DNA from: Atractiella rhizophila | Taxonomy: Eukaryota | DNA length: 37,266 nucleotides | NCBI GenBank assembly: GCA_021432655.1 | Contig: MU271299.1 | Coordinates: 65,545 to 102,810 of the forward strand | Direction of reading: 5' to 3' | Part shown: piece after piece, positions 4,592 through 30,273 of the stretch | Layout: every line of letters begins with the position of its first letter | Position numbering within the stretch: the first letter of the stretch is position 1 | Notes under the pieces: model-generated | What the model was told of the DNA's origin: nothing | Seen by the model: the letters and a program-made list of their open reading frames with translations, nothing else | Databases searched by the model: none | Program-made: the position numbers and the translations under genes

Positions 4592-7500
4592 TCAATAATC
4601 GAACAGCTTTAACCTCTCGCCAGTCTTCCAATACCATGTCTGTGGGGAGCATCAGTAACTACGCGTGCATGGGGAAATGAAGAATGTACGATATCCCTCT
4701 CTTCCACTTCTCGAAGTGTGAAACCATTCCCGTAGTGCGCGAAACGGTTGTTCGAATAGATATAATTGAAGTCTGTAACGAAGCAAATTATCAATCTCGC
4801 GCAGACTGAGGATGAAGAAAGGAAAATGTACCTTCCCACCGTGGGTTCTGAAGTGTGGAGAAATAATGGAGCCTTCCGCCAGGATGCAATGAATCGAGAG
4901 GCCCATCTGGTTTACCGTTCTTAAACCTGTCCATCCAACATCCATCAATCCCTTCGAACTCGGAGGAATAGAACAAGGATGACTAACCAAGAACTACAAG
5001 TGCTAGCCCACGCCGTAGTTTTCAATTGTTCTTGTGCATGTTCGTACAGCTCATCCACGACGTCTTGCTTTACTTCGATTGTTTTTATCGGTTCAGTCTG
5101 TAAACGGTGAAGGACCTTTATCGCGTAGTCCGAGACGTGTTCCGTCGAAGGGATGAGTGCACCGTGAGCAGAAGGCGAGCCAGGACCCATGACAACTGAA
5201 CAAACGATCTCATCAGAACACGGAGAAGAAAAGAAAAGACGTGGAACATACCGAGATAATTGGGGAATCCAGGAACAAACATGCTCTGATAAGCCCTTGC
5301 CCTATCCTTCCAAACCTGCCTCAGGTCTACGCCTTTTGTCCCAAGTAATGGAAACCGAGGCTTGAAAGAGATGTCGAAGCCAGTCGCGCAGATGATCACG
5401 TCCACCTCGTACTCCTTTCCATTCCTATCCATCACCCCCTTCTCCGTCACACGCTCGATTCCAGTTGTCACAGGCGTCACGTTCTCTTTCTGTAGAGCAG
5501 CGAGGAATCCAGGAGCGGGTGTGAGACGACGACAACCTACCCAAGGACGAATGAAAATCAGTATGTGGACAGAGAAGTTTGATGGAGAGAGGAGAGACGA
5601 ACCGACAGCGAAATCGGGGACAAGGATATCGATTAGATCTTGTCTGCCGTTCAGAGCGGTTATCATCTCCTTCTTGAAAAAGTCGAAGATCTCCTTCTGC
5701 GCCTCCGAATCCTTAATGACGAATTTCCAACGCTTGTTCAGTTCGAACTCGATATTCTGGATGCTGCATAAACACGAGCACATCAATCAGCAAATGTTTT
5801 ATACGCAAAGGACGAAGAAAACATACTACTCCCGATGTTTGACCTCATCCTTCCTAAACTCCTCTTTCCTCTCCTCGTCATAATCAAAATTGCTCCCTCC
5901 AGGTCCAGCGTACTTAGCCGCAAAAGAGGGTGTGATCCAAGTCTTGGACCTAATGAAGTGGTAGACGTGTTCGACCTCTCCCTGAATGTTAGGGAGCACC
6001 TGAACTGCTGAGGATCCGACTCCGATCAAAGCGACCTTCTTTCCCTTGAGAGAAATGGATCGATCCCACGCTGCAGTATGGGTAAGTTTTCCCTTAAAGT
6101 CATGGAGACCTTTGATGTCAGGCCACTTCCAGGCGTTCAACAGCCCTACCAAGCTTCCATCAACCTTCTTGCACTTGAAATGGATGAAAAAAGAGACGAT
6201 GGCGTACCGGAACCGTTGATAAAGAAGTCGCACCAGTCTTCAAAAGCCTCCTCCCTCTTCCCTTCCGGGACGACCTTCACAATCCAATGCGAGGATTCCG
6301 CGTCCCAACGAGCACCTACGACTTCGTGTGAGGTCTTGAAATATCCTCGGAGGTCAAAGTCGTCGACGACCTTTTCCATGTAGGCTTGAATTTGGTCGGA
6401 GGTCGAATAGCTATCATGAATGAGCGGATGAAGGAGATGATGAGCGAGGACACACTAGGAAGGCCAGTCTGGGTAGAGCGCCCATGTGAACTGGTAGGTG
6501 TGAGAGGGAATATCGCATGCGCATCCCTGAATCCAATGAAATCGAGTAAGAAGTTGTTTGTTCGCAGTTTCTCAATGTCACAAATGTCTACTCTTCATGC
6601 TTTCAAAAAGATAACCCACTTCTCACAAAGATCACCCACAGGCGATCATAGAGAGTGAGTAGCCCTAGATAAATACTCTGAACTCACTACCTCCTCGTGA
6701 GATCAAATAGAAGCATCATCTGTTCATGCAATCAAAATAAATCCTAATTGGCGCATGGTCAATCCTTTGGAGCAAAGGAGGAGTCTTCACGCGGTAATGA
6801 GAATAAACAACTCCTCATGCCATCATCATCACACCCTTAGAAGGAACAACTGGGTTCTCAGCCACGGAGAATTACCAACAGCTCTGTCAGCCGTTTGAAA
6901 CCAACTCTTCACAACTGAATAACCAACACCTGCTGAACTCATAGAAATAGGATCCACTTTACCGCTCCACTGAAAGCTTAAAAGGCAAACAAGTGGCTGC
7001 TCATGAATGTGCATGGAACAATTGGTACCGTGAGATATCACTAACTCTACTAGTTAATGAGAATAACGGCTCTCAAGCTGCCACATAAAATGCTCAGCTC
7101 CTCGTGAACTTGGGAGAACAATCTCAAAGCATAAGGAAGTAACTGATTGGTCATGAAGGGAGTTAATGAGACAAGAGACGTACAGGATATTTGTTCTCAA
7201 ACCAGGTTCCAGTCAACCCAGCATTCTTCTCATAACAAGTCAACGTGACATCCTTGAGGTGCGTTTTGACCTTATAGGCCATATTGATGCCACTCGCACC
7301 ACCTCCTACATATATGAGCTTTAAGGGACGCCTCTGACCAAGCGGTTGAGGGAGCATCTGATACCTAAACCAACAATAATATCCATGTCATCAGAACAGA
7401 AAGAACATGGACAGAAGAGCAAAGGAAGGGAAAGGAAGACTGACGAAGAAGAAGGTTGTCTCGGACCAAACACCTCATCGCTCGAGCTGACCTTTGGCGG

Positions 7501-7731
7501 GTTCGCCTTCCTCGAGGGATGGACGGGTAAGTCGTCAGCTACGAAGGTGGGTATGATCGAATGTTCCTTCTCCAAGTCGAGCTTCTGTGCTCCGTTAACG
7601 TTCGAGTTCAAGTTGACGCCGTTTGAGATGTTTGATATGGGCTTTGGGAGGGCTGATTTGAGGGCGGAGATCGCTCCGTTGATGGATGTGCCGTTCGAAG
7701 AGGAGGGAGAATCGATGGCGACTGGGGACAT
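4592..7731 (-). CDS. Type I Baeyer-Villiger / flavin-binding monooxygenase (multi-exon)
   Basis: First Rossmann motif YVGGGASG, GTWFENKYP|GCACDIPSHTYQF, BVMO fingerprint FKGKLTHTAAWD (FxGxxxHTAxWD), second Rossmann motif LIGVGSSAVQ, CRRLTP, DVIICATGFD. Modelled C-terminus ...RDI|TWYWKTGERLKLFDY* ends at 4592. Confidence 0.92.
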
Positions 7732-8142
7732 GGTCTTCTATTCTACTCTACCGTAGTGGCTGACAATGGCTGATGTAAGTATAAGGTAGATGTAGATGGT
7801 GAAGGGACGGATGGAGGGAGTGCGACATCTTAAATGTCCTGCCATACGAAACGCCTGCCACGGCACAACAAAACACCGATAATATAGCCGATAATCCAAA
7901 TCGAAAGCGACAGCAAAACACCGTGGACGAACTAAAACGCCGGAGGCGTGCTTTCCACTCGGCGTTCTCCGGCACGTCAGCCGGCACTCGCGCCTCACCA
8001 CTACAGCTAAAAGAAGCATCAACCATCAACACTCCGATCCATCTCCATCCACCATTCGCCATCCGACGACCACCAGGCGCCAATAACACCTAACAACAAC
8101 AGCGATAGAAGAGATATTCGCGACGCGTGACGTATCGATCAC
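7732..8142. promoter_or_regulatory. Bidirectional promoter (BVMO / acyl-CoA ligase) with four AACRCCG motifs
   Basis: Divergent ATGs at 7731 and 8143. AACACCG at 7872 and 7917, AACGCCG at 7936, CGGCGTT at 7960. Confidence 0.7.
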
Positions 8143-11099
8143 ATGACCTCCATTAATCGAACCAAGCGAGTTACTCCTCCCCTCTTCTGGTCACCGGGAG
8201 GTCCACGTCCTCACGAAGGGGAGGAGCCGCACATCGAGAAGTTTAGGAAATGGGTCAACGCTCGACGTTCTTACGGCCTCAAATCCTATTGGGATCTCCA
8301 TCGATGGAGCGTTTCCGTACGTCTCAATCTTCATCACAAGTGTGGGGGATTGACTTGATATCTTTGGTGAGAGCAGAAGACCGATGAGTTCTGGAGCGAC
8401 TGTTGGGACTACTTTGGCTTCGTAGGCTCAAAAGGAAACGGGGTGCGTCACTCTCTTCCTTTCGCATCACAACTCTTTCTTACATATTACATATATTCCA
8501 CGATTACAGTCAGCACACGACAGGTCGATACCAATGAACAAACCACAACGCTGGTTCCCCGGCGCATCCTTCAAGTGCGCCATCTTCCTCGTTTTCTCTC
8601 CTCCTTCGTCATGAGAACTGACATTATTCCTTTTGCAGCTTCTCAGAAAACCTCCTCCTCTCCCATCCCAACGCACGCTCCCCAACAGCCACAGCCGTGA
8701 TCGGAACCGTCGAGCCCGACCCATCCTCTTCATCTCCGCAAGAGCCTGTAGAGACAGGGCGTTTGAGTTGGGCTGAGCTGTATGACGAAGTGGGCCGTCC
8801 ATCCATTACATATCTGAAAGCAAAGACATGTTGTTGACGTTGAATTATTGATAGGTGGGAAGAGCGGTTGTAGCGCTCAGGAAGTTGGGTGTTAAGCCTG
8901 GAGACTCAGTCGTCACCTTTGGAGCGTCGAACGTGGAGATGGTCGTCGTCTATCTCGCCGTGATAGCTGTAGGAGCGATCTTCAGTTCCACACCCGCCGG
9001 TGCGTATATTACCCCTTCTCTTCCCTCCTCGGCAACTGACATTCCGACTTATGGATGGATGCTGCAGAATTCGGATCCCACGCAGTCATCGACAGATACT
9101 CCATCATCAAGCCAAAGGTCCTCTTCACCATCGACAAGTACAGGTACGGACGAAAGGAGCATCTCGTATCGCAACGCGCTAGGGAGGTCGTCGACGCTCT
9201 TGTCAAAATGGGAGGGATCGAGCATGTCATCGTCATCGGACACCTCGTCCCTTCTCGCGAACCTGTGCCGGATAGTTTGAAAGGATTCAAAGGGGTAAAG
9301 GTACGCTTTCTCTTGATCGTATCTTTAAGATGAAACTGACTTTTTTCTCTTTTTCAATTCTGATGCATAGACTCAGACTTGGAATTCCTTCTTAAAATCA
9401 GGAAATGGCGCACCGAAGAATATCGAATTCCATAGGGCTGATTTCAGCTGGCCAATATGGATCGTCTTCTCTTCTGGTTCGTCGCCCCCTACTATTTCAT
9501 TTTACGCCTTTACGGCAAGAGGATGTGCTGACTCGATGGCTCGATTGGCTGGTTAGGGACGACTGGAAAGCCCAAGTCGATCTTAGGACCTGGTGGGGGA
9601 CTACTCTTGAGCAGGAAGATGACGAATATGCTCCACATGAATCTAGACCATCGAGACACCGTGCTCCAATTCTCCACCGTGCGCTCTCTTACCTTCTCCA
9701 TTTCAACGAGATCGCAATGCTCACAGCGATTCACAGATGGGTTGGATCGTCTATAACCTCTCCGTCAACTTTTTGGCCACAGGAGGGACCATGTTGTGCT
9801 ATGACGGCTCGCCATTCCATCCCCAAGAGGTTCTCTGGAGGCTGGTCGAGAAATACAAGTCCGTTTCCTCTAACTTTGCAGGATGAATTCTGACTATCGG
9901 CGATAGGGTAGCGCAACTTGGAATCTCCCCTCGGTACATCCAATCGCTGGCTCGAAATCGTTTCGTCCCCTCCGCAGAACGCGACATCTCCTCCCTGAAA
10001 CAAGTTTATACCACCGGGGCTCCAATAACGGGAGACGTCTACGATTACATCGCTCGAGAGGCTCGTCTTCCTCCTTAACCCATCCCAAGTACGATATAGC
10101 CGCTAATTTTCGAAAACTTAGGTACCCAATGCGTTCTTGTCCAATAACTGTGGCGGCACGGAGATCGGAGGAGGCCTGCTCCATTCCGTTCATACCCTTC
10201 CCGTCTATCGAGGGGAGTTACAAGTGCCGATTTTGGGGATCGATCTAGCGGCTTTCGATGATAATGGTACAGTGTGTTTTTGCATTCTATAGCTCGATAT
10301 TGATCAAACCATTTATTCATTACAGGCAAACCGGTATACGATCAGGAAGGCACCATGGTCATTCGCACCGCCTTCCCAAATATGCCAGTAGGCTTCGTCG
10401 GTTTGTCCTTTCTCTCCCGCTGTCTCTGGATTCTTAAGTAGGGAATGCGGGGACAGGAGATGAAGGCGGCAAACGATATCAAGAGACCTATTTCTCCGAC
10501 TTCCCTTCCCCCGTGTTCAACATGAACGACAACGTCTACATGAACTCTGTCACCGGCGGCACTCTCGTCCTTGGACGGTCAGACGGAGTGCTCAATCCAT
10601 CCGGCGTGCGGTTCGGGAGCGCCGAGTCTGTCTCCTCTTCCCTCTGGCAATTTCACTCATCAATGGTACAGGCTTTATTACATCCTCGAGAAGGACTTCC
10701 GCGACGAGATCGTTGACTCGATAGCCGTAGGCCAAAAGACAGCAGATAACAACGAACGCGTCGCTCTCTTCGTCGTTCTACCTGAGCACAAGCGGTTGGA
10801 CAAAGATTTGGTGGGGATGGTGCAAGAGGCGATTCAGCAGCAGCTCAGCAGACGGCATGTACCAGAAATCATCGAGCAATGCCCTGCGATTCCGAGTACC
10901 ATGTCGAATAAGAAACTGGAGAGCACGGTCAAAAAACTGATGTAAGCCCTACTTCTTCATCTCTTTGTGGACACTAAGGCGGATGGACAGAAACGGAGTC
11001 CCGTTGAAAAATATCAACACGTCTGGAGTCGCCAATCCGGAATCCTTTGCCTTCTTCGATCAGTGGTACAAGAAGCAGACAAGGCCTGCAAAGCTCTGA
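8143..11099 (+). CDS. Acetoacetyl-CoA synthetase-family AMP-dependent acyl-CoA ligase (divergent), C-terminal PTS1-like AKL
   Basis: SYWDLHRWSV, RWFPGA, GAIFSSTP, AMP-binding IVFSSG|TTGKPKSI, YDGSPF, GGTEI, GRSDGVLNPSGVRFGSAE, LSRRHVP, SNKKLE, ANPES. Last exon ends ...KKQTRPAKL* (TGA 11097-11099). Confidence 0.9.
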
Positions 11100-11280
11100 T
11101 ATCCGAATCTGTTTCGATCCCTTTATTGTTTAGATATAGCATTTGCATTACGATTACTGTTGCATTACAACCTGCATGCGAACGAGAACAAGCACTCAAA
11201 CGGTAGTTACATAACGAGATGGATAATGCGTCAAAGCGCTGGAAAGGTGAAGTCGGCAAAAGACAAGAGTAGAGCAATGC

Positions 11281-14200
11281 TCATTGAAAAGTGAAGAAAG
11301 GGTCCCACTGAAAGTGAGCACTAAGCATTCCACATGAAGCAAGAGAAAAAGGGGACTCACCGTGACACTCTGGACCAGTCCAAAGTTGCCAAAAATGTCA
11401 TTCTGGACGAACTGATCGATCTGCTCTCCACCAGTCAAAGGCATCCAGTTCGAATCGCTCATCGAAACGAGCAGATCGTCCATCGAGAGCTCAGGCATTG
11501 GCATATCCTGCTGCCCACGGTGCTGTTGCTCGTCCAGTGCACCGTTTGCACTGCCACTGATAGTTTGCGATTGGTCTTGTTCCGGCAATGGGTCAAGGTA
11601 TAAATTGGTCTGGTTGTTAGGGCTCGTCGCCCGCGTCGAGCAAGATTCTTTAAGTAAGGCATTCAGACGGTCAGCGTAGATCTTGGACCGTCCGAAACGG
11701 TGAGAAGGGTAGACACCGAAGCTTTCAAGGAGTGTTACGACTCGTCGTAGGAGGTGGTAAATGTTGGGTTCGATGGGTTGACTTGATTCTTTCCATAGCA
11801 ATAGCTGAGATCAGAGCATACATCAATAACATGTCCAATTTCAAGGGTGATAAAATACCTTGAGAGCGAACGTAGCAGCGTATCCGATCATCATACAGGT
11901 ATTATTGACGAGATACCTGAGTTCTTCTCCTGCTTCTACGAATGCTTGACAGGTTTGCAACGCTGCTATGAGACATTCATGCAACATCGTGGACTCAGAC
12001 GGATGCCCGAGGTGGTCCTTGAGGACGACAATGAGGATGGAGAGCTGAGTATGACAGCCGACAAGATTGAGGTAGGAAACTTGTGAGCCAGATGATGAGT
12101 TCTGCTCCTCATTCTAGAGAAGAAAAGGAGAGCGTACAGGTCCGCGATTTAGGCAACCAATCGTTCCTCCACATGGTCCTGAACACCGATGATATAAGGA
12201 GATGTCCAGGCAGTCAAGTGATGGAGACGCACATAAAATCCGCCGTGATAGCCTTCACCACTGCGGGACTGCTCTTGGGTTTAACCTGCATCTGTTGGGC
12301 CGTCGGAAATGCTGTATTCTCTGGAGCATTCGATACTTGTCTCAGGATATGTGGCTACATAGACCGTCGGTTCGAGGGCTCAGAAATCGAAGAAACCGAG
12401 CAGGAAGGAAATGGCACACCAGTTTACGACGAATCACCACTAGAGCGGCGACGGTCCAATCCTCTGGAACAGCAGAAGGATCGTTAGCCCACTGTTCCAC
12501 TGATTGTACAAGGTCGTTTTCTGGTATGGAGAAGATCCAAGGGTGTCCATGTAAGAGAGCTAGTCTGTCGTTGGAGAGTCAGCACACAGGGTAACATGGA
12601 GGAAGCGAGGTAGGTACCCGCGATCGAAACAGAATAAAGTGAGATAAGTCCTCTCATAAGACCTGACATGTAATTTTCCCTCGTGTGGAAGGTCGGTCTG
12701 AAGGGTCGGACGACGAATTTGGTGAAATTTGTAGTTTGCAAAGTTGAGGTAGGTCGAGGTTTGGTCAAGGGAGAAGTGGGGACTTGCATCCTTCGTTCAT
12801 TACGTTCAACGGATGAATGGAAGAGTAACGGAGATGGAGGAAGGGAGAGGCGCACCAGCCAGGGACAAATAATGCAAAGCGCCTGAACTAATTCTAACGA
12901 GCTCCCTCCTTCAACGAGCACGTGTCCAAGCATGGTCTTCAAATGCTGATCTAGGCGTTGAGAGGTGGCTTGATACCCCTCAAGGAACCTGCACATGGTG
13001 ACGCCGTCAATTTCAACAGCGAATGAGATACGCGACTCACTTGGAAGCTGAAGCGAGTATGGAAACAAATAGAAATGTGCTCCTTTCCCTCACCTCTTGT
13101 CTTCCTTGAATCCTCTCGTCCACTAATGCGACCATGGGCTGAAGGTTTTTATTGAACCTAATACCAACGGCGCGGAATAGATCAGCAGATTCAAGTAGGG
13201 GAGAGGTCAACGAACATCTCAAACATCTCCTGGGCTTCTTTCTCCGTACAAATGCCGACCACGATGGGATCGAAGTCTTCACAATAAGCTAGTGTGGAAG
13301 GGATGGAGAGCATGTCACCGAAATAACTGGAGTGGTGGACCTCAGCATTCATCTTCGTCCTATTCATCGGCCGGTAGGTGGTAGACACCACCCTCCCACT
13401 CGAGGTCCCCAACCGGGGAATTTCTGACGGCTTCCGCTCCGCCAACATCTCCAAAGGCGTGTGCGTGAACTTGGTGCTCGCTGGCGGTTCTTGGGCAACC
13501 GCTGAGGGAAGATCGATTTGGGGTTGTGCCCTGAGAGTGGGGGGAGGATGAGGGGGTGGCGGGTGAGAATGAGGATGAGGCTGTGGGTGGTGGGCATGAG
13601 CATGAGCAGTGTAGGTGGTCGAAGGTGGCATTCCCCCAAGAAGGAGGAGGTTGGATACGCCGTCCGAGTGGGAATGGGAATGGGAGTGTTGGAGAGGCGG
13701 TGGGGGAGGAGGAGCGGCGTGCTGAGGCGGATACGTCGGCGGATGGTGTTGAATTTGGTTATGAGGAGAATGTTGGTCTCCTGGTGCCATTGGGAACACA
13801 TTTTTGGGTTGACCATAGGTTGGAGTGGTGAGTTGGACCACTGGGATATCAGAGGCGGAGCTGGTTGAGGTCGATGGGAGGTTGATGAGCTGATTGACTG
13901 GTGTCACAGCCGCCGAGGACCCAGAATGATGATGTTCGTGAGGGGAGTGTCCGATTGGCCCGTTAGGGAACTGAGACACATGGTGAGGGTGCTGGTGAGG
14001 GTGCTGCTGCTGGCTGAAAGATAGTGCCGCCTTCCCTCCATCTAGCAGCGCCTGCAAGCCCTCGCCTCCGCTAGGACCTCCATTAGCACTCCCTCCACCT
14101 GCTTTCAAAGCGTCCTCCAGAACCTCTATCGCCTTCGTCAGCTTCTTGGTTTTGTGGTACCTATCCAAATGCAAAATCAGAGTCTCATTCTGGGGTTTGC

Positions 14201-14490
14201 TGGCAAGACATAACCACCAAATGAGAGAAAAAAGACTCACTCGACCGGTTCAGTCCTCCTACGTCCAGACTGGCGAGCTCGGGTCTCACAGACGACGTTG
14301 GCTGCCTCACATCGTTTGCAGGTCTCGTTCTCGTTATTTCGCACACATTTCATCTTGCCTGTCCAAGAACTGAGCGTGAGCAGCTAGACTGACGACCAGA
14401 AAGAAACAAACTGGTGCGACAATACATGCACGCAGTGGCGATAGTGCTCGACTTCTCCCTCCTCTTCCTTGTGGCCTTCTCCTCACTCCC
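11281..14490 (-). pseudogene. Zn2Cys6 transcription factor, downstream partial copy: lacks promoter and first 16 codons, retains native C-terminus
   Basis: Near-identical to 14491-17574. Begins at GSEEKATRK at the duplication junction. Modelled end ...QNDIFGNFGLVQSVT|WDPFFTFQ* at 11281. Confidence 0.7.
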
Positions 14491-17400: not shown

Positions 17401-17574
17401 TGCAGGTCTCGTTCTCGTTATTTCGCACACATTTCATCTTGCCTGTCCAAGAACTGAGCGTGAGCAGCTAGACTGACGACCAGAAAGAAACAAACTGGTG
17501 CGACAATACATGCACGCAGTGGCGATAGTGCTCGACTTCTCCCTCCTCTTCCTTGTGGCCTTCTCCTCACTCCC
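11407..17574. repeat. Head-to-tail tandem duplication, 2 x 3084 bp (11407-14490 and 14491-17574)
   Basis: ORFs recur at a constant 3084 offset (11847/14931, 13191/16275). Junction CTCACTCCC|ACGAACTGAT at 14490/14491. About 15-20 substitutions seen by eye and no net indel. Confidence 0.97.
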
Positions 17575-17622
17575 TAGCCCTCCCGCATTGAGGGAATCAT
17601 TGTTATGTGGATGCTGCATCAT
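14491..17622 (-). CDS. Fungal Zn2Cys6 (GAL4-type) transcription factor, upstream copy, C-terminus cut by the duplication junction
   Basis: ATG at 17622. Spliced N-terminus gives CMYC-RTSKMK-C-VRNNENET-C-KR-C-EAANVV-C (Cx2Cx6Cx8Cx2Cx6C), then a His/Pro/Gln-rich region and a fungal TF middle region (DPIVVGICTEKEAQEMFEM..FNKNLQPMVALVD, SSLELVQAL). Confidence 0.88.
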
Positions 17623-18063
17623 CCTCCGAGTTCTGTCCTAGGCTCCTGGAAAATTATATTATCTGTCTAAATTAACAATATTTTGTACTTTTACGCGGCT
17701 GCAGGGCGCCTATGTTGGGGAAGTGAGGAGGAGCTTGATGACTGTATTGCTAAATTACCATATTCCCACCGTGAGTCAATTTGTGGGACCGGAGCCAAGG
17801 TAGGCGGTGCTACCTTCCAGTGGCAACAGCTATGATTTTGATGTTATCTTATCGACATTACTGAAATATTGCGACAACTTGCACTTTGCGACTGGCAGGA
17901 CAAGAATTTTGATGCTGCGAATCAATGCATTCGATAACTAATCAGGCACACGTGCAAAATCTACTGGTACATTCCTTCATCCATCATAGCATGCGTATCC
18001 GATCCAAAATACGATCAATTCATAAGGTATCAAAGGAGACAGCCTGTCTCAAGGGGACAGCGC

Positions 18064-20772: not shown

Positions 20773-21226
20773 TGCTGCTTGACTACCTCGATATTCGTTC
20801 GTGGCTGACCAACTGAGTTTGAATTATGCGCTGCGCTAGTTAAGTGTTGAGTTGTTGAGTTGTGTGGATGGGGACAGAAGTTAACAGTGACGCCGCGAAT
20901 GAACCAGCTGTAAGCGTGAGCGTTAGTGGATTCGAAACGCGGGGTAACGCCCGAGTGAAGGATATGCGGTTTTTAAACTCTTCCTCGCTCGATACGCCCC
21001 TTTCCAACTAAAACACCGGGGTTCCATCACTGTACGGCGTTCTGCGTTGATGAGGAAACAAATGTGTCGGCGTTTTTCATCATAAACTATTTTTTGCTGA
21101 GCAGAGTCATTTCGGAGATTTGAAGGAGAATTTGAAAAAGGGAAGAACGCCGTCGGCGTTTACTCTTAATTCTATTACGGGATATCACATGATCTACTGA
21201 AATCCACCAGCAACAACCAACTTACA
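20773..21226. promoter_or_regulatory. Bidirectional promoter (MFS / thiolase copy 1) with five AACRCCG motifs
   Basis: AACACCG at 21012, CGGCGTT at 21035 and 21068, palindrome AACGCCG-T-CGGCGTT at 21146-21160. Confidence 0.7.
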
Positions 21227-22727
21227 ATGGCATTGCAGGATATCCTCACCCGCTCGCCAGACGATATCGTCATTCGTCAGTCCTTTATTCCTGTCTCTTC
21301 ATTGCATCTTCTCTTCCGTCACCTTGGTGGACATTATGAGAAGTACTGAGCAAGCTTCAACAGTATCCGCCAAACGCACGCCGCTCTGTCGAGCAAAAAT
21401 GGGCGGTCTAAAGGATAGCAAATTTGAGGACCTGCTCTCTACCAGTCTACGAGCGGTACTACATGAAGGAGGAGTGCCAGCTGACAAGGTGGAAGAGGTA
21501 TGCATCGGCACTGGTCCGTCTTCCTCTTTCCCTTCTCTTGACAACATACAGTATACGCTGATTACCCCTGGACTTTGTGATCTTGAAGTCAGGACACCGA
21601 GAGGAGGAGCCTCCATTTCCCGCATGGCCGCCATCCATGCTGGCATCACCACAAAATCCACCGTCAGCACCGTCAATCGTCAGTGCTCTTCTGGCCTTCA
21701 GGCTGTGTGGAACGTCGCCCTCAGTATCAAGAACGGGGACATTGATATTGGCATCGGAGGAGGGGCGGAGTGCATGACCATGCATTATAATACAAAGGTG
21801 GTGGAACATGAAGTCAGTTTTTCACTTTCCTCCCTATATCTTTTCTCCCCATATGTTTCATTTCTTTGCTGCTATTGTCACATTGAGCCTCTTTTCTTTC
21901 CTTTCATTGTGTCGCATCAAATTGATCACAATTTCCGCCTCGGTCAACAGGTCTCGGAAGATGTGATGAGCACTAAAGCAGCAGCAGACTGCTTGATACC
22001 TATGGGAATAACAAACGAAAACGTAGCGACACTGTGCGTCCTCCTTTTCGAGCATACACACGAACAGAAAACTCTAACCCAAATACCGACAGGTATTCGA
22101 TCCCCCGCTCTTCTCAAGATGCCTTCGCAGCCTCCTCCTATTCTAAAGCCGAAAAGGCCCAAAAAACCGGCTTCTTCGCCGAAGAGATTGCTCCGGTCCT
22201 GGTACGGAGTAAGAAGAAGGGAGAGGACGGAAAAGTGGTGCGAGTGGAGAGCAAGGTGGAGGCGGACGACGGTATTCGATACGGTGTCACAGCCGAGGTG
22301 GGTGACGTACTCTACCCTTTCTCCCTTTCTCGGTTTCGGTCTGCAAAGATGAGGATGCGTACTGATTGGGTGGGTGGTGCATATACAGAGTCTGAGCACG
22401 ATCAAGCCCGCATTCAAAAAGGACGGGAGCACGCACGCGGGTAACGCCTCTCAACTGACAGATGGCGCGGCCGCTGTCCTCCTCGCGCGGAGGTCTGTGG
22501 CGGAAGCGATGGGGCTAGGGGATCGCATTAAAGGCAAGGTGGTTAGGGTCACAGGTGTCGGTGTACCTCCACATGTGAGCGCGTACCCTTCTCTTCCTGT
22601 CAGCTTGTTTGATGTTGGTATGCTGGTAGATCATGGGCGTGGGACCGGCTTTTGCGATCCCCAAGTTGTTGGAAAAAGAAGGACTTGGTATAGGAGACGT
22701 CGATTTCTTCGAAGTTCATCTCCTCCC

Positions 22728-22733: not shown

Positions 22734-22779
<46 letters not shown>
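22732..22779 (+). repeat. Homopolymer A48 at the duplication junction
   Basis: 48 consecutive A; the matching position in copy 2 reads CCTTTAAGTG (~25118-25127). Confidence 0.95.
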
Positions 22780-22781
<2 letters not shown>

Positions 22782-22909
22782 TGGATGACAGAAAAGATAG
22801 AGAGTAGACATTGAACAAAGATAGAGAGAGGAGAAAAGAGAAGGGAGGAAGGATAAAGCACAGATAAACCTAAAAGATAAAGATTATCTAAGATAGAAAG
22901 ATGGCTCAC

Positions 22910-23161
22910 CTGCGCAATCTCCTTAGTATTATCTGGTTTGTAGACCAATCGCTTCCAAAGCGACCTCTTCTCTGCGCCATACTCGGAAGAACCAGCATCC
23001 CAATCTTGGCCTCCCTTGGGAAGAGCAGGATGATGGGTTGGCGACGACTCTATCATCTCCACATCCTCCTTCCTCTTCTCAAGGGAAGAAGGGGCTGGCG
23101 ATGGAGAAGAGTGCTCCTTTTCCTTGATATCTCTCTCATCGTAAGACATTGGCTGGGACAT
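22910..23161 (-). pseudogene. Orphan duplicate of MFS exon 1
   Basis: MSQPMSYDERDIKE...KEIAQ, near-identical to 20521-20772, followed by an intron donor that runs into the A/T tract. Confidence 0.8.
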
Positions 23162-23615
23162 TGCTGCTTGACTACCTCGATATTCGTTCGTGGCTGACCA
23201 ACTGAGTTTGAATTATGCGCTGCGCTAGTTAAGTGTTGAGTTGTTGAGTTGTGTGGATGGGGACAGAAGTTAACAGTGACGCCGCGAATGAACCAGCTGT
23301 AAGCGTGAGCGTTAGTGGATTCGAAACGCGGGGTAACGCCCGAGTGAAGGATATGCGGTTTTTAAACTCTTCCTCGCTCGATACGCCCCTTTCCAACTAA
23401 AACACCGGGGTTCCATTACTGTACGGCGTTCTGCGTTGATGAGGAAACAAATGTGTCGGAGTTTTTCATCATAAACTATTTTTTGCTGAGCAGAGTCATT
23501 TCGGAGATTTGAAGGAGAATTTGAAAAAGGGTAGAACGCCGTCGGTGTTTACTCTTAACTATATTACGGGATATCACATGATCTACTGAAATCCACCAGC
23601 AACAACCAACTTACA
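23162..23615. promoter_or_regulatory. Duplicate bidirectional promoter upstream of the intact thiolase
   Basis: Motifs at 23401 and 23424, and 23535-23549 (AACGCCG-T-CGGTGTT). The site at 23457 has changed to CGGAGTT. Confidence 0.65.
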
Positions 23616-25485
<1,870 letters not shown>

Positions 25486-25682
25486 AGATGAAATCAAATA
25501 GCTATGTTGCGCATGGTGCAATCCACACGTAAAGGGAATAAAAATACTCTTTCCTGACCCAGTGTCGATATGCATGATATTCACTTACGAAGCAATGGAT
25601 ATGCGCGGCAAAATTCACTTGCACTTGAAGTACATTGCAAGCTTGTATCTTTAAATCGGCACAGCATTGAGGACTTCGCTTC

Positions 25683-27236
25683 TTAGAAAATTGCTACTAC
25701 ATTCGCTGTAGATTGAAGAAACAAGCAGATTTGTTAACGTCACAGGGAAAGAGGAGCGAGGGGAACGTACGAGTTGACCCGACGCCTCCAGGGACATTGA
25801 GTGGAGCGGAGGAAAGGAAGAAAGTCCACCTTTTATGTTCTTCGCAGAGTTTAGACAGTCTGTTCAGCAAAAAATGCCGATTTAGTCAAAATAGTGAGAA
25901 CGAAGAGGAGGCATACTTTTCGAGATTCCACATCTCTCCAATGCTTCCATTTCCATCAAGTAGCACGTTAGAACCAGAGAATAAAGGTGGAGTGATCTAA
26001 CTTACGGCATACCTGTTCCAGATGGAGGAATAAGTACATATAGTAAAAGAAGAGAGAAGAACACGAACCCCAGAGAGCCAAGAAATATTCGTGCACTTTG
26101 TCAATTTCTGATTAGGCAGCTCTTCGACAGACATGAAATGGGTAGGCTCACGAGATGGGGACACCTTCGGCGGCCAGGCTTCAAAAGCGACAGTATCTCC
26201 TCCCACAGCCGCGAAATGATTATTCCTACGCCCCATCCCTGTTAACTCTCATAGCACGAAAGAGAGGCAAGACACACCAAAACCACTCCACGCTCTCCTC
26301 TGTACACTCCACTCCGATAAAAACTGCGTTCTCAAATGTCCCTTTCTTTCTCTCCTCCTCTCCGGCCTCCTCGTGCCACTTCACGAACCCCGTCCTGATG
26401 AGCAGAATGTCTCCGACTTTGAATTCCACTCCCTGTTCGCGAGCTACAGCTTGGAGCTCAGAAAGAGGGATTTCGTGTCGTGAGACAGGCGAAGGGACAG
26501 AGGTCGAGGATCGACGCATCTTCCACGACAACCAATCAAGCAATACGCCACGACCGACAATGCCACCGGCGGAGCAGAAGTTTGAAATACTGTTCTTGAG
26601 GCCGTGGGAACCACTAATGATCTCGTCATGACTGTCCAGACCAAACCTTTCAGCTCCCACCGAAAACATGATTGGAATGAGCACAAACGTTAGTCCGTTG
26701 TAGTATTTCCCAGATTGCCGATGCGCATAGTGCAGGAATCCGTCCCACTGAGAGCCACATTGAGTGTTGAAACTGACCTATTTACACTCGTTACCCGCGC
26801 ACAATCTAATCTAAGAGGAGAATATACCTACCTCATCGTCACACCCAATATGTCCACTTGTGGGATTGCTTTTGTCAATAATCTTCTGCTTGAAAGGAGC
26901 TCTACAACCAATCAAACTTAATGAATGCTTCGTTCACGGCTTAAAATGGTAAACGGACCGCCGAAAGCCAGGAAACTGGACGTTATTCAGCGACCAATCT
27001 AGCTGCACTCTCACCCCAGTCCTGATCTCCTCCTTCGCCGCATCCTGTACTCTTTCTGGAGTTAACAGATTCAGTGCTGTGTTACCACATCATTAATTGA
27101 CAGACAAATTTACAGATAAAAGGTGCCTACTTCCCAACTCGTCTCTCGTGCTCTTGTCTTTGCTAAACAACCCCCATGCACAGCCGTGAGGCATACCCTC
27201 GACATAGGGGAGATCCTTGAAATCGCAGATCTCCAT
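25683..27236 (-). CDS. Fungal cyclase-family (kynurenine formamidase-like) metal-dependent hydrolase
   Basis: MEICDFKDLP..GCAWGLF..DELG|TLNLLTPERV..EIRTGVRVQLDW, SQWDG, GGIVGRGVLLD, GDILLIRTG, FAAVGGDTVAFEAWP, PLNVPGGVGST|PNVVAIF* (TAA 25683-25685). Confidence 0.9.
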
Positions 27237-27682
27237 CGCTTGCTTTCTTTCTTCAGCTACGATTGATTTATTGCAAACAAGCTCCTTTGTGAAGAGCCGG
27301 TGTTTTACTTGACTCTCCGCTCCGGTTCGGAGCCGATTTGGCAGAAAAAAGGAAGGTCCCGCTCCCAGTCATCTCTTTTCTATAGAATATTTATTATTTA
27401 TAGCAGACTAATAATTATGGGAATCGTGGAGCCTCGTGTTCAACCCATCTTGCGAATGACCAAGTGTTTTTTCAGACTCAAGATACCCATTGATTATGGA
27501 TTGGCTGAGCAATGAGTATGAGAATGAATATGGTCTTGAGACAATATGGAAAACTGGAGTGCCTATAGATTCTCAATTTTTGATGCCGCACCTTTTCCAA
27601 GGTCTTGAGCCAAAATCGCCAAATGCTACAATTCGATGATTTACAACATGACAAAATATAGGCTACATCGATTGAGAGTCGT

Positions 27683-28752
27683 TTAAATGCCTCTTCCTCC
27701 GTCGACAGATACAATGATCCCCGTCACAAAATCGCTCTCCTTGCAGGCGAGATGGGCAACCATGTTAGCGATATCTTCAGGCTGAGCAATTCTTTGGATT
27801 GGAATAGTCTGCGCGAGGCGTTTTCGAGCCTCAGGGTCGTCCTTTCCTCCAGTCAGGCTATTGGTCCTGTTCATTATAGTTAATCTTGCCGGTAAGGTGA
27901 AGATTGAGATGACTGTGCGTACATTTGTGTGTTGGCGATGACTGGAGCAACGCCGTTGAAGCGAATTTGATGTGGAGCATATTCTATAGCTAATGACTTT
28001 GTCGCTCCCTCTGCTGCGGCTTTTGATGCCCTAATCCAAAATTCCATTTCTGTGTGTCTTTTGGGAGAGACACTTACGTGTAGTAAGCGAGCCCTGGCCG
28101 TGGACGCGAAGCACTCATGCTTCAGGTCATAGTCGTTAGTTATTGTGCGTGCCGAAGGATGAGGGAAGTTGCGTACCTCGTGATGTTGACAAAGTTCGCT
28201 TTGATGCCTTCTTTGATGAAATGAGGAACGAGTAGCTGGGCCGACACGAAAATCGGCTTCAAGTTAACCTTGAGAAGGCGATCGAGTGTGTCAAATCCCA
28301 TCTCGTGTGTTGGCTGCAGCCCAGATTAATATATCCATCAACTTTCAAAGGAAGCGAAAGACGCACAGTAGCGTTCATCACAATGCCTGCATTATTCACG
28401 ACTATGGTGAGCTTCCCCCATTTCTCATTTGCAGTTTTCAACGCCTCTTCCCACGGTTTTGGATCCGAAACGTCTCCCTGAATGATCTAATTTGCGCCAT
28501 TTAACTGATATTCACTGAAGGGGAAGAGGGGAAGAGACTTACAGCTACATCCTCGCGCTTGTCGTCCTTCAAAGGCTCAATGTTCCAGTCAATGATTATC
28601 ACCTTCGCTCCCTCGTTCAAAAACTTGGTGACAATTCCAGCTCCCAAGCCTATCCACGCCTTCAGTTGCTTGAATTTAGATAGTGATTGAGAGAACAACT
28701 AACCGATGGCACCCCCTGTCACGATTGCGACTTCCCCTTCGAGCTTTCCCAT
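27683..28752 (-). CDS. Classical short-chain dehydrogenase/reductase (3-oxoacyl reductase-like)
   Basis: MGKLEGEVAIVTGGA..GLGAGI, VVNNAG, RPRPGLAYY..ASK (YxxxK), IRFNGVAP, PEDIANMVAHL..FVTG..VDGGRGI*. Confidence 0.92.
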
Positions 28753-29031
28753 TCTGATTGATCCGTAATGTAAGCTCAGGATACCTTTTGAACTCCTTTC
28801 TTTCCCCCCTTTTCCTTTTTCCTTTTACAATTTGCTGCTATAGGAAAACCGGCGTGAAAACGCCGGCCGGTGTTGCCGCAGGGTTTTGCCTTTGCCGCCA
28901 TCAGCCAGACAGCAGAGGTGGGGTAGGAAGATATAGCAACGATGTTACAGGAGTCTAAAATGGCATGCTAAACTCTGAGTTACTGCTACCTTCAACTGCT
29001 GGAATCCCTTCCCGTTCTGTCTCCGGCAAGC
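28753..29031. promoter_or_regulatory. Bidirectional promoter (SDR / hydrolase) with palindromic motif pair
   Basis: AACGCCG-GC-CGGTGTT at 28859-28874, preceded by AAAACCGGCGTG. Confidence 0.65.
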
Positions 29032-30273
29032 ATGAAGTTCGTACTTGCTTACAAGCACGTTAAATCTACCCCTCTTCTCATGGATGTACACCCATCCGAT
29101 GTCTATGTGGAGGGGGGAAACCCACTTGCATTTTATTTCCACAGTGGCGGCCTCGTGAGTCTCCCCGTTTGCGTCGAATAACAAGCCTTGATGCCGAAAC
29201 GACAGACGGGAGGAAGGAGAGATGGCTTCTTCCCACAGTGGTTGGCAGATTTCGCTAACCAAAGAGGCGTACATGTCGCCAGTGCCGACTACAGACTCAT
29301 ACCTAGCTGCACGGTCGCGGACATCATTGAGGACGTGAAGGACATTTATGAGTTTGTCAGAAGCGAGGATGGGTTGCAAAGGGAATTGGAGAAGAGAGGA
29401 CTGGGGAGGGTGGATAAGAACAAGCTCCTCGTGTGAGTTTTCCTTCCCTCGCAGTGGGACAGCCCTAAGTTTTCTACTGCTCAAGAACGGGAGGAAGTGC
29501 AGGTGAGCTGTGCTCCTTCCACTCGTCCGATTGGACTCTGATCAATGTTATGAAGGTGTCTACTGCGCTCTCCAGTTGACTCTCCATCTTCTTTCTTCAG
29601 CTTCCAAACATCCACCTCCTCTGGGATTCCTCAATCTGTACGGTGAGCTTGACATAGGCGCGCGGCAGCACAACCATCCTCCTTTCTCCCTCCCAGAGGA
29701 GTATCGCTACCTTTGGGATAACAACCGGGCTCCAGTGACGGGGACAGATGTGAAGTGGTTCTACACTCCGGTTGAAGAGTGTTCCAATGCGGTCGAGAGA
29801 GAGGAGGCAGACCAAACCACTTTGTGCGTCCTGCCATCCTATTCTTCGCTTAGTGTCTGATAGGCAGAAACAGGACGTCAAAGCTTTTCGCGGCAGGTAT
29901 TTTAGCAGACGCGTTCACATCTTCGGACAGCCTGTCCCGCGCGCTTGCAGAGCAGAAAGACGATTCTCTTGAAACTCAAGCGGCAACGATCCCCTCAGAG
30001 CTTCATTGCTTTTTCCCACTTCTCCAGATCCCCAGTTCCTTTCCTCCAACCCTCATCTTTCATGGGGAACAAGATGCGGCAATCCAAATATCTGAATCCG
30101 AGCGTTTTGCAGAGAAGTTGAAACAGGTCGGGGTTCCGGAAGAGAAGATCAAGTTCGTCAGAATTCAAGGCGAGGGCAGCGGCCATGGATTTGATAGAGG
30201 GGATGGTTTTGAAAAGTATTGGGAGAGCGTGATGAAAGAGAAGATGGAGTGGTTGTTTGAATTCGTAAATTGA
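29032..30273 (+). CDS. Alpha/beta hydrolase (HSL-like esterase/lipase family)
   Basis: MKFVLAYK..FYFHSGGL (HGGG-like oxyanion motif), ADYRLIP, nucleophile GGSAG, FLIFHGEQD, GHGFD. Ends ...WLFEFVN* at 30273. Confidence 0.88.

Follow-up and report, generated by a model that had tools for sequence, protein, structure and literature searches.

The locus at positions 4592 to 30273 of the analysed window, a stretch of 37,266 nucleotides from the root-associated fungus Atractiella rhizophila, is probably a co-regulated catabolic gene cluster for the uptake of a ketone or ester and its breakdown to acetyl-CoA. We assign this reading a probability of about 0.6, based on gene identities, catalytic motifs, the enrichment of a promoter motif, the transcription of four genes and a partly kept linkage. 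The genes of the window correspond to annotated proteins of A. rhizophila and follow the order Baeyer-Villiger monooxygenase (BVMO, -), acetoacetate-CoA-ligase-family enzyme (+), Zn2Cys6 regulator (-), MFS transporter (-), thiolase (+), cyclase-like hydrolase (-), short-chain dehydrogenase/reductase (SDR, -) and Abhydrolase_3 esterase (+). The outer bounds given in the first-pass annotation proved exact, as the spliced models place the end of the BVMO gene at 4592 and that of the esterase gene at 30273, and the three head-to-head pairs BVMO/ligase, MFS/thiolase and SDR/esterase were recovered. All eight kinds of gene that it had listed were found and their enzyme identities were upheld by profile matches, solved relatives and catalytic motifs. 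However, two tandem duplications in the assembly had been overlooked and one thiolase copy is truncated, so that the locus contains ten gene-like units rather than eight. The flanks are as described before, with a degenerate copia-type gag-integrase-RT remnant at 3-3303 on the left and unrelated genes, a protein kinase among them, on the right.

The type I BVMO gene (4592..7731, minus strand, about 646 aa) contains many introns and was assigned by the Pfam FMO-like domain and by exons matching the annotated proteins P0103 (window), P0291 (second contig) and the orthologue P0104. The motifs GGGASG, FKGKLTHTAAWD and GVGSSA are readable, one stretch agrees with FxGxxxHxxxW[P/D], and the best solved relatives are the cyclohexanone (CHMO), steroid (STMO) and phenylacetone (PAMO) monooxygenases with E-values of about 1e-48. 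A divergent promoter (7732..8142) with three AAAAC[AG]CCG sites (7870-7878, 7915-7923 and 7934-7942) separates it from the gene of the acetoacetate-CoA ligase family (8143..11099, plus strand, 701 aa), which was assigned by exon order and NCBIfam profiles. Eight of the nine scanned ligase exons match acetoacetate-CoA ligase profiles best and are collinear with them, while the ninth has no match. For the annotated protein P0292 the TIGR01217 score is 520.9 bits, equal to the cut-off of 520.9, with profile positions 14-651 of 652 covered; on NF002937 the ligase reaches 596.3 bits, short of the cut-off of 639. This predicted family membership fits the earlier proposal that a CoA ligase and a thiolase feed 3-oxo acids to acetyl-CoA. 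Since the protein ends in -AKL, it is probably peroxisomal.

The Zn2Cys6 regulator gene is affected by the first tandem duplication (11407-14490 / 14491-17574), which comprises 3084 bp with 99.5% identity and 15 differences and has both breakpoints within this gene. According to the gene models and the junction sequence, the downstream copy (11281..14490, minus strand) keeps the native C-terminal end and lacks a start codon and promoter of its own; the upstream copy (14334..17622, minus strand) starts with the ATG at 17622 and receives an altered tail through a frame shift at the duplication junction. The Zn2Cys6 motif is interrupted by a 53-nt intron and reads CMYCRTSKMKCVRNNENETCKRCEAANVVC after splicing, and the match to Pfam Zn_clus is partial (17.3 bits).

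The MFS transporter gene (18049..20772, minus strand, exon 1 at 20525-20772) matches Pfam MFS_1 on two exons and appears to be of the anion:cation symporter (DAL5-like) type. This agrees with the family named in the first-pass annotation, as one exon matches the ACS-family model TIGR00893 with an E-value of 4.6e-9 and 35.7 bits, far under the whole-protein cut-off. Exon 1, the divergent MFS/thiolase promoter (20773..21226, with AAAAC[AG]CCG at 21010-21018 and 21068-21076) and about 80% of the thiolase gene were copied in the second tandem duplication (20392-22733 / 22783-25124, 94.9%). The gene model of the first thiolase copy (21227..22713, plus strand) stops after DVDFFE without the C-terminal catalytic His and Cys, and a run of 48 A (22732-22779) lies downstream of it. 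The duplicated MFS exon 1 and promoter (22783..23615, with AAAAC[AG]CCG at 23399-23407) precede the intact second copy (23616..25485, plus strand), a degradative 3-ketoacyl-CoA thiolase with its Cys, His and Cys motifs including SMCAGTGFG, whose introns at 24204-24350 and 24434-24492 are borne out by spliced RNA contigs. Among solved structures it is closest to peroxisomal 3-ketoacyl-CoA thiolases; by-eye reading of the thiolase revealed neither PTS1 nor PTS2. This counts against the catabolic reading, as does the broken thiolase copy together with the rearranged regulator gene, since the cluster could be decaying.

The cyclase-like (PF04199) hydrolase gene (25683..27236, minus strand, 327 aa) was placed by mapping P0001, its introns are supported by RNA contigs, and the region upstream of it (27237..27682) contains AAAAC[AG]CCG at 27298-27306. 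The protein aligns end to end with PDB 5ibz (E-value 2.7e-24, low identity) and carries the modified motif Gln-x3-Gln-x-Asp-x3-His; among 22 aligned relatives Q104, Q108, D110, H114, H272 and E285 never vary and R75 hardly does. The structure 5ibz is that of MGS0169, a metagenomic cyclase-like, metal-dependent and Mn-stimulated carboxylesterase in which mutagenesis showed the modified-motif and substrate-binding residues Q127, Q131, D133, R87, H286 and E299 to matter and the H137A mutant was insoluble, and trans-dienelactone hydrolase is stated to have the same modified motif (Sci Rep 2017, PMC5341072). MGS0169 and the fungal protein have this motif in common, and the Arg, His and Glu tested there are kept. 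MGS0169 is, however, bacterial and has no established physiological role or context, and the esterase role of the fungal protein is predicted. The fungal protein belongs to the Gln-variant subfamily and not to the classical amidase type, the characterised member of this subfamily being an esterase.

The SDR gene (27683..28752, minus strand, about 255 aa) is of the classical type, with Pfam adh_short and adh_short_C2 matches on three exons, the motif TGGAIGLG and, once spliced, VNITS...AYYTASK, where the catalytic Ser and YxxxK are found. Its divergent promoter (28753..29031) contains AAAAC[AG]CCG at 28857-28865 within the palindrome CCGGCGTGAAAACGCCGG and leads to the alpha/beta-hydrolase esterase gene (Abhydrolase_3 / BD-FAE, 29032..30273, plus strand, about 345 aa). 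The esterase model includes FHSGGL and GGSAG, the Pfam assignment was made on the near-identical relative P0141, and an RNA contig links 29432 to 29554 over a mini-exon.

The 9-mer AAAAC[AG]CCG occurs eight times in the 37 kb window against 0.43 expected, and none of 100 shuffles reached eight. All eight sites are located inside the five cluster promoter regions, and the window scan found no site within coding regions, none in the flanking DNA and none in the promoter of the regulator itself. In an unbiased motif search it tops its class with 7 sites in four of the five promoters; it was derived from the same promoters used for scoring, which is allowed for by the shuffle test, where none of 200 dinucleotide shuffles equalled this result and the best gave 4 promoters with 4 sites. 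If one mismatch is allowed, 16 of 29 sites fall inside the 3.2 kb of promoters. Unrelated DNA gave a background of 6 sites in 284 kb. The flanks of the sites are mutually dissimilar; the sites are therefore not copies of a longer repeat. The earlier description "apparently co-regulated" thereby gains in-silico support. Spliced RNA contigs (run X3) show that four genes are transcribed, namely those of the second thiolase copy, the cyclase-like hydrolase, the SDR and the esterase; co-induction lies beyond the reach of contigs.

The synteny check yielded a mixed picture. Partial linkage is seen in Pseudohyphozyma bogoriensis, where the BVMO orthologue KAI5479976 and the esterase relative KAI5479973 (53% identical) share a 259-kb contig and have accession numbers differing by three, and on a metagenome contig, probably from an ascomycete (L108), where SDR and cyclase-like gene are arranged and oriented as in the window and a Zn-ADH and a BVMO come next. 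In Meredithblackwellia, however, BVMO and esterase relative are unlinked, being 255 accession numbers apart. The actinobacterial locus of Streptomyces sp. NPDC058001 (L074) combines Abhydrolase_3, 3-oxoacid CoA-transferase, BVMO, ligase, cyclase-like, SDR and thiolase-like genes, Acrocarpospora pleiomorpha (L062) has a similar set, and an Acidimicrobiaceae MAG (L036) has the cyclase-like gene between thiolase-like and acetoacetate-ligase-like genes. These loci resemble the cluster in that the cyclase-like gene adjoins acyl-CoA ligases, SDR and thiolase-like genes, but differ in their acyl-CoA dehydrogenases, hydratases, TetR or sigma-54 regulators and SCP-x-like thiolases; they are uncharacterised, make up 3-4 of 80 loci and share 25-38% protein identity with the window. 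A further locus (L051) has an acetoacetate-ligase-like neighbour by tblastn. BVMO relatives lie near only two of the 80 bacterial cyclase-like loci, acetoacetate-ligase relatives likewise near only two, and the 106 neighbouring ORFs scanned out of 154 candidates represent heterogeneous contexts with only 16 CoA-thioester enzymes. The closest relatives of the cyclase-like gene are from Ascomycota and those of BVMO and esterase from Pucciniomycotina, so the gene histories differ.

On the catabolic reading, an ACS-type permease would take up a small organic acid or ester, the SDR would interconvert a secondary alcohol and a ketone, and the BVMO would insert oxygen beside the ketone to give an ester or lactone. 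Acetoacetate, or a closely related short 3-oxo acid, would result and be activated by the ligase, probably in the peroxisome, and the degradative thiolase would cleave the CoA ester to acetyl-CoA. We infer the order of these steps and the substrate with its class, as well as the "self-contained" and "catabolic" character that the first-pass annotation had also proposed. The cluster's own Zn2Cys6 factor may drive all promoters through putative binding to an AAAAC[AG]CCG(G) element; no copy of the motif is present in the promoter of the regulator itself, which counts against this model. The route also lacks a step turning the BVMO and esterase products into a 3-oxo acid, and this counts against the catabolic reading.

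The same genes could form a cluster for 3-hydroxybutyrate, ketone-body or polyester utilisation, which we consider unlikely. Here the esterases would free 3-hydroxybutyrate from esters or from PHB oligomers of rhizosphere bacteria, the SDR would yield acetoacetate, the ligase acetoacetyl-CoA and the thiolase acetyl-CoA, with the BVMO in a peripheral role such as clearing acetone formed from acetoacetate. The ligase family speaks for this linear route, which the SDR, thiolase, two esterases and carboxylate permease also suit, and the esterase matches a medium-chain PHA depolymerase model with 24.6 and 23.2 bits, far under the cut-off of 270 bits. However, the best models of the SDR are generic rather than those of 3-hydroxybutyrate dehydrogenase, the thiolase is of the 3-ketoacyl and not the acetoacetyl-specific type, and since the BVMO linkage recurs in Pseudohyphozyma, L108 and L074, the BVMO is unlikely to be peripheral.

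That ordinary, independently regulated metabolic genes are neighbours by chance, with the regulator and transporter serving something else, would agree with gene families that are all large and common in fungi, with the unlinked Meredithblackwellia genes and with the differing gene histories. It is distinctly unlikely given a 9-mer restricted to the cluster promoters at a count that no dinucleotide shuffle reached, the three divergent gene pairs, the co-occurrence of SDR, cyclase-like gene and BVMO on the unrelated contig L108 and the repetition of the enzyme set in actinobacteria.

That the genes form a biosynthetic or tailoring cluster lacking a classical core enzyme appears quite improbable. 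On this reading, ligase and thiolase would build a small beta-keto skeleton by Claisen condensation, SDR, BVMO and hydrolases would modify it, and the MFS protein would export the product. Thiolases are able to catalyse condensation as well, tailoring steps are often carried out by BVMOs, SDRs and hydrolases, and fungal secondary-metabolite clusters typically include MFS exporters and Zn2Cys6 factors. However, the domain scan of 196 ORFs of at least 75 aa found no PKS, NRPS or terpene backbone, as noted before, and likewise no prenyltransferase domain; the transporter belongs with the ACS/DAL5 importers, the thiolase is similar to peroxisomal enzymes of degradation, and beta-oxidation enzymes abound in the analogous bacterial loci.

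In Clostridium scatologenes, an SDR (PGR) adjoins a "cyclase"-family enzyme (DPGC) that retains the isatin hydrolase metal site, in a pathway ending in acetoacetate and acetoacetyl-CoA. A comparable phloroglucinol-type route, in which the SDR would reduce the ring of a polyhydroxy-aromatic compound or of a cyclic 1,3-dione, the cyclase-family enzyme would open this ring by retro-Claisen C-C hydrolysis like dihydrophloroglucinol cyclohydrolase, and ligase and thiolase would carry the triketide acid to acetyl-CoA, is suggested by this neighbourhood and by the adjacent, co-oriented SDR and cyclase-like genes in the window and on L108, but is very improbable, because the window protein carries the Gln-Gln variant known from the esterase MGS0169 instead of the DPGC metal site, a BKACE-type lyase is absent, and BVMO and second esterase are left without a role.

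Literature searches for such a fungal gene cluster found none described among the titles and abstract openings listed, in line with the first-pass annotation, which had not recognised the combination as a characterised fungal pathway. The fungal catabolic clusters for quinate (qa/qut) and nicotinate (hxn) have their own Zn2Cys6 factor, an MFS permease, divergent promoters and CGG-containing sites. They resemble the window cluster in joining enzymes and permease with a binuclear zinc regulator, in the divergent promoters and in these sites, whereas their enzyme set is wholly different; to our knowledge, neither BVMOs nor acetoacetate-CoA ligases take part in any of them. The mymA operon of Mycobacterium tuberculosis, with a proposed role in lipid remodelling and not in carbon-source catabolism, encodes a flavin monooxygenase, the LipR esterase, an SDR, an alcohol dehydrogenase and the FadD13 ligase. 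It shares the monooxygenase, the Abhydrolase_3-type esterase, the SDR and an acyl-CoA ligase under a dedicated regulator, but is not known to include a thiolase, a cyclase-like hydrolase or a ligase of the acetoacetate type. In the bacterial ketone and cycloalkanol clusters chn (Acinetobacter, cyclohexanol), mekAB (Pseudomonas veronii) and acmAB (Gordonia), an SDR alcohol dehydrogenase, a type I BVMO and an ester or lactone hydrolase act in sequence under a pathway-specific regulator and pass their products to central acyl-CoA metabolism. SDR, type I BVMO, hydrolase and own regulator are common to the window cluster, which differs as a eukaryotic locus with many introns, a Zn2Cys6 regulator, an MFS importer and two unrelated hydrolases, and in that the acetoacetate-CoA-ligase-family enzyme and thiolase stand in for omega-hydroxy-acid and aldehyde dehydrogenases.

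The region 4592-30273 is best read as a co-regulated catabolic gene cluster, a reading that we put at a probability of about 0.6. The DNA of the window is intron-rich and fungal, and three annotated proteins of Atractiella rhizophila (Pucciniomycotina), the BVMO P0103 (KAH8924303), the ligase P0292 (KAH8924304) and the cyclase-like protein P0001 (KAH8924310), align with it exon by exon and belong to one common contig of 102,810 bp. Spliced models were built with a small self-trained exon-chaining script and corrected by annotated proteins, orthologues and spliced RNA contigs, and domains were searched with Pfam in all 196 stop-to-stop ORFs of at least 75 aa and with NCBIfam in 32 exons. Pfam and NCBIfam matches together with the spliced models place the BVMO (4592-7731, minus strand), an acetoacetate-CoA-ligase-family gene (8143-11099, plus strand), an MFS gene (18049-20772, minus strand), a thiolase in two copies on the plus strand between the MFS and cyclase-like genes, the cyclase-like gene (25683-27236, minus strand), an SDR (27683-28752, minus strand) and an Abhydrolase_3 esterase (29032-30273, plus strand). 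A Zn2Cys6 regulator, also in two copies, was located by domain searches and a spliced model on the minus strand between the ligase and the MFS gene. Five accession numbers lie between the ligase and the cyclase-like protein, equal to the five gene-like units modelled there. The cluster enzymes are contiguous with a permease and a regulator of their own, with no unrelated gene interrupting 4592-30273, and Pfam places a protein kinase and then further genes to the right of the esterase. The first-pass annotation had described eight genes in three head-to-head pairs without a PKS, NRPS or terpene backbone; the spliced models confirmed its outer coordinates, the gene map its pairs, and Pfam found no PKS, NRPS or terpene synthase domain among the 196 ORFs. 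The eight genes are real, but self-comparison of the window revealed two tandem duplications that had been overlooked. On the left, a degenerate copia-type retroelement identified with Pfam (3-3303, minus strand), in which the gag, integrase and RT frames are broken, adjoins a pair of 83-bp inverted repeats (3438-3519 and 4026-4108, 85% alike).

The strongest new support for co-regulation is a motif common to the cluster promoters. The search covered every 9-mer with no more than one two-fold degenerate position in five promoter regions (BVMO/ligase, regulator upstream, MFS/thiolase, cyclase-like upstream and SDR/esterase), and the best motif, AAAAC[AG]CCG, occurred with 7 sites in four of the five. 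None of 200 dinucleotide-preserving shuffles equalled it, the best reaching 4 promoters with 4 sites. Across the whole window the motif was observed 8 times as opposed to 0.43 expected, a count reached in none of 100 shuffles. The sites lie at 7870, 7915 and 7934, at 21010 and 21068, at 23399 (in the duplicated promoter), at 27298 and at 28857, all of them 60-300 bp from the start codon of some cluster gene; coding sequence, introns, the regulator's own promoter and the surroundings of the flanking genes are free of the motif throughout the window. When one mismatch was tolerated, 16 of the 29 sites fell inside the 3.2 kb of promoters. The flanks of the sites differ from one another, so the sites did not arise by copying of a longer repeat. 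As a background, 284 kb of unrelated metagenome DNA contained 6 sites, and the motif was absent from L108, the metagenome locus described below. A CGG-Nx-CCG search gave no spacing common to the promoters, and generic k-mer sharing with one mismatch was no better than in shuffles; the exact degenerate 9-mer was the sole pattern to rise above them. The CCG/CGG triplet within the motif and a palindrome at 28849-28866 fit a binuclear zinc factor, and the cluster's own regulator is the putative binder. The earlier claim of co-regulation thus gains computational support from a strongly enriched promoter motif, whereas the RNA contigs attest the presence of transcripts, relative levels or induction being beyond their reach.

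The regulator carries near its N-terminus the Zn2Cys6 pattern C-x2-C-x6-C-x5-12-C-x2-C-x6-8-C once a 53-nt GT-AG intron is removed, reading CMYCRTSKMKCVRNNENETCKRCEAANVVC. This intron splits the motif, which is why no unsplit Zn2Cys6 motif was found in any of the six frames; the second exon alone scores 17.3 bits against Pfam Zn_clus, under the cut-off of 21. The fungal-specific middle homology domain (Fungal_trans, Fungal_trans_2) gave no match on the regulator exons and ORFs, in an exon-wise search that is less sensitive.

Transcription was followed with contigs of four public runs placed on 22790-37266, a section chosen to avoid long internal repeats, which leaves out the BVMO, ligase, regulator and MFS genes and both duplication junctions. 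Contigs of run X3, with GT..AG and CT..AC joints, extend over the complete thiolase copy, the cyclase-like gene, the SDR, the esterase and flanking genes, while runs X4 and X5 cover the section partially and X1 behaves as DNA. Among the joints listed (15 of 44), two thiolase introns and seven introns of the cyclase-like gene were confirmed, and the esterase mini-exon was separately supported. A 30-letter loose end of RNA contigs at 22909 had no exact 20-mer match in the window.

Judged by family membership, the enzymes would convert an alcohol or ketone to an ester or lactone, hydrolyse it, and, through a hypothetical step joining the BVMO-esterase half to the ligase-thiolase half, carry a 3-oxo acid on to acetyl-CoA. 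Type I BVMOs are recognised by the fingerprint FxGxxxHxxxW[P/D]. This fingerprint and the FAD/NADPH dinucleotide-binding motifs are present in the window protein, GGGASG, FKGKLTHTAAWD and GVGSSA being readable both in P0103 and in P0291, the BVMO of a second contig. Among solved structures 44 sequences were matched, the best being CHMO, STMO and PAMO (E 5e-48 to 1e-45), and residues 14-478 could be aligned to STMO, giving the whole-length similarity of a type I BVMO. The nearest relatives are from other Pucciniomycotina, with 66-74% identity over the query exon. The ligase matches TIGR01217 at 520.9 bits, exactly the cut-off, over profile positions 14-651 of 652, and NF002937 at 596.3 bits, under the cut-off of 639; the acetate- and propionate-CoA ligase models scored much lower (230 and 165 bits). 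A homologue search with one 89-aa exon of the ligase as query returned only 8 matches, which were uninformative on synteny. The C-terminus of the ligase is -AKL, and that of a Vanrija protein annotated as acetoacetyl-CoA synthetase is -ARL; both are probably peroxisomal signals. In the complete thiolase copy the nucleophilic Cys, the catalytic His and the C-terminal Cys (SMCAGTG) are all present, as in degradative thiolases, and all or nearly all top matches of both exon searches were plant, human and yeast 3-ketoacyl-CoA thiolases of the peroxisome. The SDR contains TGGAIGLG and, once spliced, VNITS...AYYTASK, its NCBIfam matches being generic, and one exon of the MFS gene matches the ACS-family model TIGR00893. 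The esterase contains FHSGGL and GGSAG, and its near-identical relative P0141 matches Abhydrolase_3 and BD-FAE; its family is small, since only 7 of 220 representatives reached E 1e-10.

The cyclase-like protein matched a single solved structure at E values up to 0.01, namely 5ibz (E 2.7e-24, residues 31-326), and no kynurenine formamidase or isatin hydrolase structure at that threshold. 5ibz is described as MGS0169, a cyclase-like protein that came out of a metagenomic library; its esterase activity, measured on p-nitrophenyl acetate and stimulated by Mn2+, is some three orders of magnitude above its isatin amidase activity (PMC5341072). In the same text, MGS0169 has Gln-x3-Gln-x-Asp-x3-His in place of the classical His-x3-His-x-Asp-x3-His, a modified motif that is shared by a trans-dienelactone hydrolase, and mutation of Q127, Q131, D133, R87, H286 or E299 greatly lowers its activity (PMC5341072). 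The residue roles for the window protein were taken from this source and transferred by residue-by-residue alignment to 5ibz, which showed the modified motif and the conserved Arg, His and Glu to be present. In an alignment of 22 fungal and bacterial relatives, Q104, Q108, D110, H114, H272 and E285 are invariant and R75 nearly so, and the signature of the classical PF04199 amidohydrolases (kynurenine formamidase, isatin hydrolase and dihydrophloroglucinol cyclohydrolase) is absent, Gln replacing the first two His. On the strength of the MGS0169 data and of these invariant residues, the gene is read as a predicted metal-dependent esterase or lactonase, so that the cluster would hold two unrelated enzymes able to open the BVMO product.

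Two known routes were compared with the proposed chemistry. The cyclohexanol (chn) pathway has 6-hydroxyhexanoate and 6-oxohexanoate dehydrogenases beside its BVMO and lactonase. Its dehydrogenases have no counterpart domain in 4592-30273, where Pfam detected neither an aldehyde dehydrogenase nor a second alcohol dehydrogenase domain. A phloroglucinol route was set aside: in Clostridium scatologenes the ring of phloroglucinol is opened by an SDR together with a "cyclase" enzyme, yielding acetoacetate, but the "cyclase" is said to retain the classical metal site (PMC10470551), which weakens the idea for a protein with the Gln-variant motif.

The first tandem duplication (11407-14490 and 14491-17574) comprises units of 3084 bp that are 99.5% identical, with 15 differences, 10 of which fall in 11562-11832. 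Both breakpoints lie within the regulator gene: the upstream copy has its ATG at 17622 and a tail that is frame-shifted from the junction on, and the downstream copy retains the native C-terminus without a start codon or promoter. In the second (20392-22733 and 22783-25124; 2.35 kb, 94.9% identical), the repeated unit spans MFS exon 1, the divergent promoter and, counted from its 5' end, about 80% of the thiolase, and a stretch of 48 A (22732-22779) links the two units. Thiolase copy 1 stops after DVDFFE, inside an intron, and is without the GHPLG and CxG parts, and hence without the catalytic His and C-terminal Cys of a degradative thiolase; copy 2 is complete. The regulator duplication may have happened recently, or it may be an artefact of assembly or of haplotypes. 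The BVMO and ligase have near-identical second copies, adjacent to each other, on a 23.6-kb contig of the same assembly, and the esterase has one on a 52-kb contig, KAH8915124/5 and KAH8918501 being proteins of these second contigs; P0291, P0133 and P0141 from other contigs are ~98% identical to window proteins or fall into common 90%-identity clusters with them. The pattern is suggestive of haplotigs or of a segmentally duplicated cluster, and because of these second copies unresolved haplotypes are a live possibility for the tandem duplications as well. The DNA contigs of run X1 also differ from 22790-37266, 20 of 53 being only 95-99% alike with many substitutions and small indels, which is indicative of variation between strains or haplotypes at this locus.

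Linkage in other fungi was judged by accession order, which in the window follows gene order, and the picture was mixed. In Pseudohyphozyma bogoriensis the BVMO orthologue KAI5479976 and the esterase relative KAI5479973, 53% identical to the window esterase over the query exon, share a 259-kb contig; in Meredithblackwellia the two also share a contig, yet 255 accession numbers apart, so that they count as unlinked. A metagenome scan with a BVMO alignment returned 33 loci, none above 50% identity, of which only L108 was informative. This locus has intron-split frames and a cyclase-like gene closest to that of a lichen-forming ascomycete, and carries on one strand the C-terminal part of an SDR, the cyclase-like gene, a Zn-ADH and a BVMO, with the SDR and cyclase-like gene in the order and orientation of the window. 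In two further loci, L105 and L110, an SDR adjoins the BVMO.

At least 567 bacterial relatives of the cyclase-like gene were found and 80 loci were kept, in which tblastn with the window proteins detected relatives of the SDR in 16, the thiolase in 4, the BVMO in 2 and the acetoacetate ligase in 2, and of the esterase or MFS protein in none. The immediate neighbours are heterogeneous, with 16 CoA-thioester enzymes, 4 lactonases and 4 luciferase-like monooxygenases among the 106 of 154 candidate ORFs scanned. Three loci were mapped from 74 of their 126 ORFs. L074 from Streptomyces sp. (18-16503) encodes an Abhydrolase_3 protein, 3-oxoacid CoA-transferase A and B, a BVMO, a TetR, a thioesterase and a ligase, followed by the cyclase-like gene, two acyl-CoA dehydrogenases, an SDR, a second ligase and two thiolase-like genes. 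L062 from Acrocarpospora (611-16323) is similar; both combine a BVMO, the cyclase-like esterase, acyl-CoA ligases, acyl-CoA dehydrogenases, an SDR and SCP-x-like thiolases, the Abhydrolase_3 esterase and the 3-oxoacid CoA-transferase being additional in L074, and they may encode an undescribed catabolic pathway. In L036, thiolase-like and acetoacetate-ligase-like genes flank the cyclase-like gene. That like enzyme kinds recur around the cyclase-like hydrolase in a few lineages far apart from one another speaks for a functional connection rather than for one fixed operon.

For the BVMO and the esterase, the closest relatives belong to Pucciniomycotina; for the cyclase-like protein, the closest non-self ones come from Ascomycota, with about 50% identity across the query exon and as much as 60% in the alignment behind the tree. 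A quick tree of this family, built from 53 of 102 matches after removal of unnamed entries (seven were kept as outgroup) and of proteins above 420 aa, including that of the other basidiomycete, Ceraceosorus, placed the basidiomycete Atractiella protein among Ascomycota beside Taphrina (SH-aLRT 90) and in no strongly supported clade, which is only a hint of transfer from Ascomycota. A far wider reading, which we consider unlikely, would see here an undescribed and widely scattered catabolic module of fungi of two phyla and of actinobacteria, in which an SDR, a Gln-variant cyclase-like esterase or lactonase and a BVMO are followed by 3-oxoacid activation and thiolysis. In Atractiella it would have been partly assembled by transfer of the SDR/cyclase-like pair from Ascomycota, wired to a peroxisomal acetoacetate-CoA ligase and controlled via a new Zn2Cys6 element, AAAAC[AG]CCGG, in a root endophyte consuming a plant or rhizosphere ketone. 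Candidate substrates would be a cyclopentanone such as jasmonate, a methyl ketone or an acyl-phenol and, if true, this would be a eukaryotic signal- or toxin-degrading pathway.

For the co-regulated catabolic cluster, fungal catabolic clusters with their own regulator and permease are already known, as is the bacterial BVMO-esterase logic; what would be new here is their combination. The literature, in the portions accessible to us, describes no fungal cluster that joins this layout with BVMO-esterase logic or couples it to an acetoacetate-type ligase and a thiolase. If the reading holds, it defines, for a root endophyte that has been little studied, a regulon of one motif, one regulator and eight targets; it places in a physiological setting a cyclase-like esterase subfamily so far known through one metagenomic enzyme and a dienelactone hydrolase only; and it gives a lead on the small ketones or esters that such fungi obtain from roots or from microbes nearby. 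The BVMO and the two hydrolases are also candidates for biocatalysis.

To the right of the cluster, a 495-aa open frame without a Pfam match (34925-36409, plus strand) is followed by a partial look-alike (36782-37129, plus strand), with a repeat that is 75% alike (35415-35542 and 36954-37081); the two may form a small tandem gene family. The word depth of the RNA contigs was by far the highest within 22790-37266 over a small gene at 33338-34540 (minus strand), whose C-terminal exon presumably resembles the ubiquitin-like protein Hub1/UBL5.
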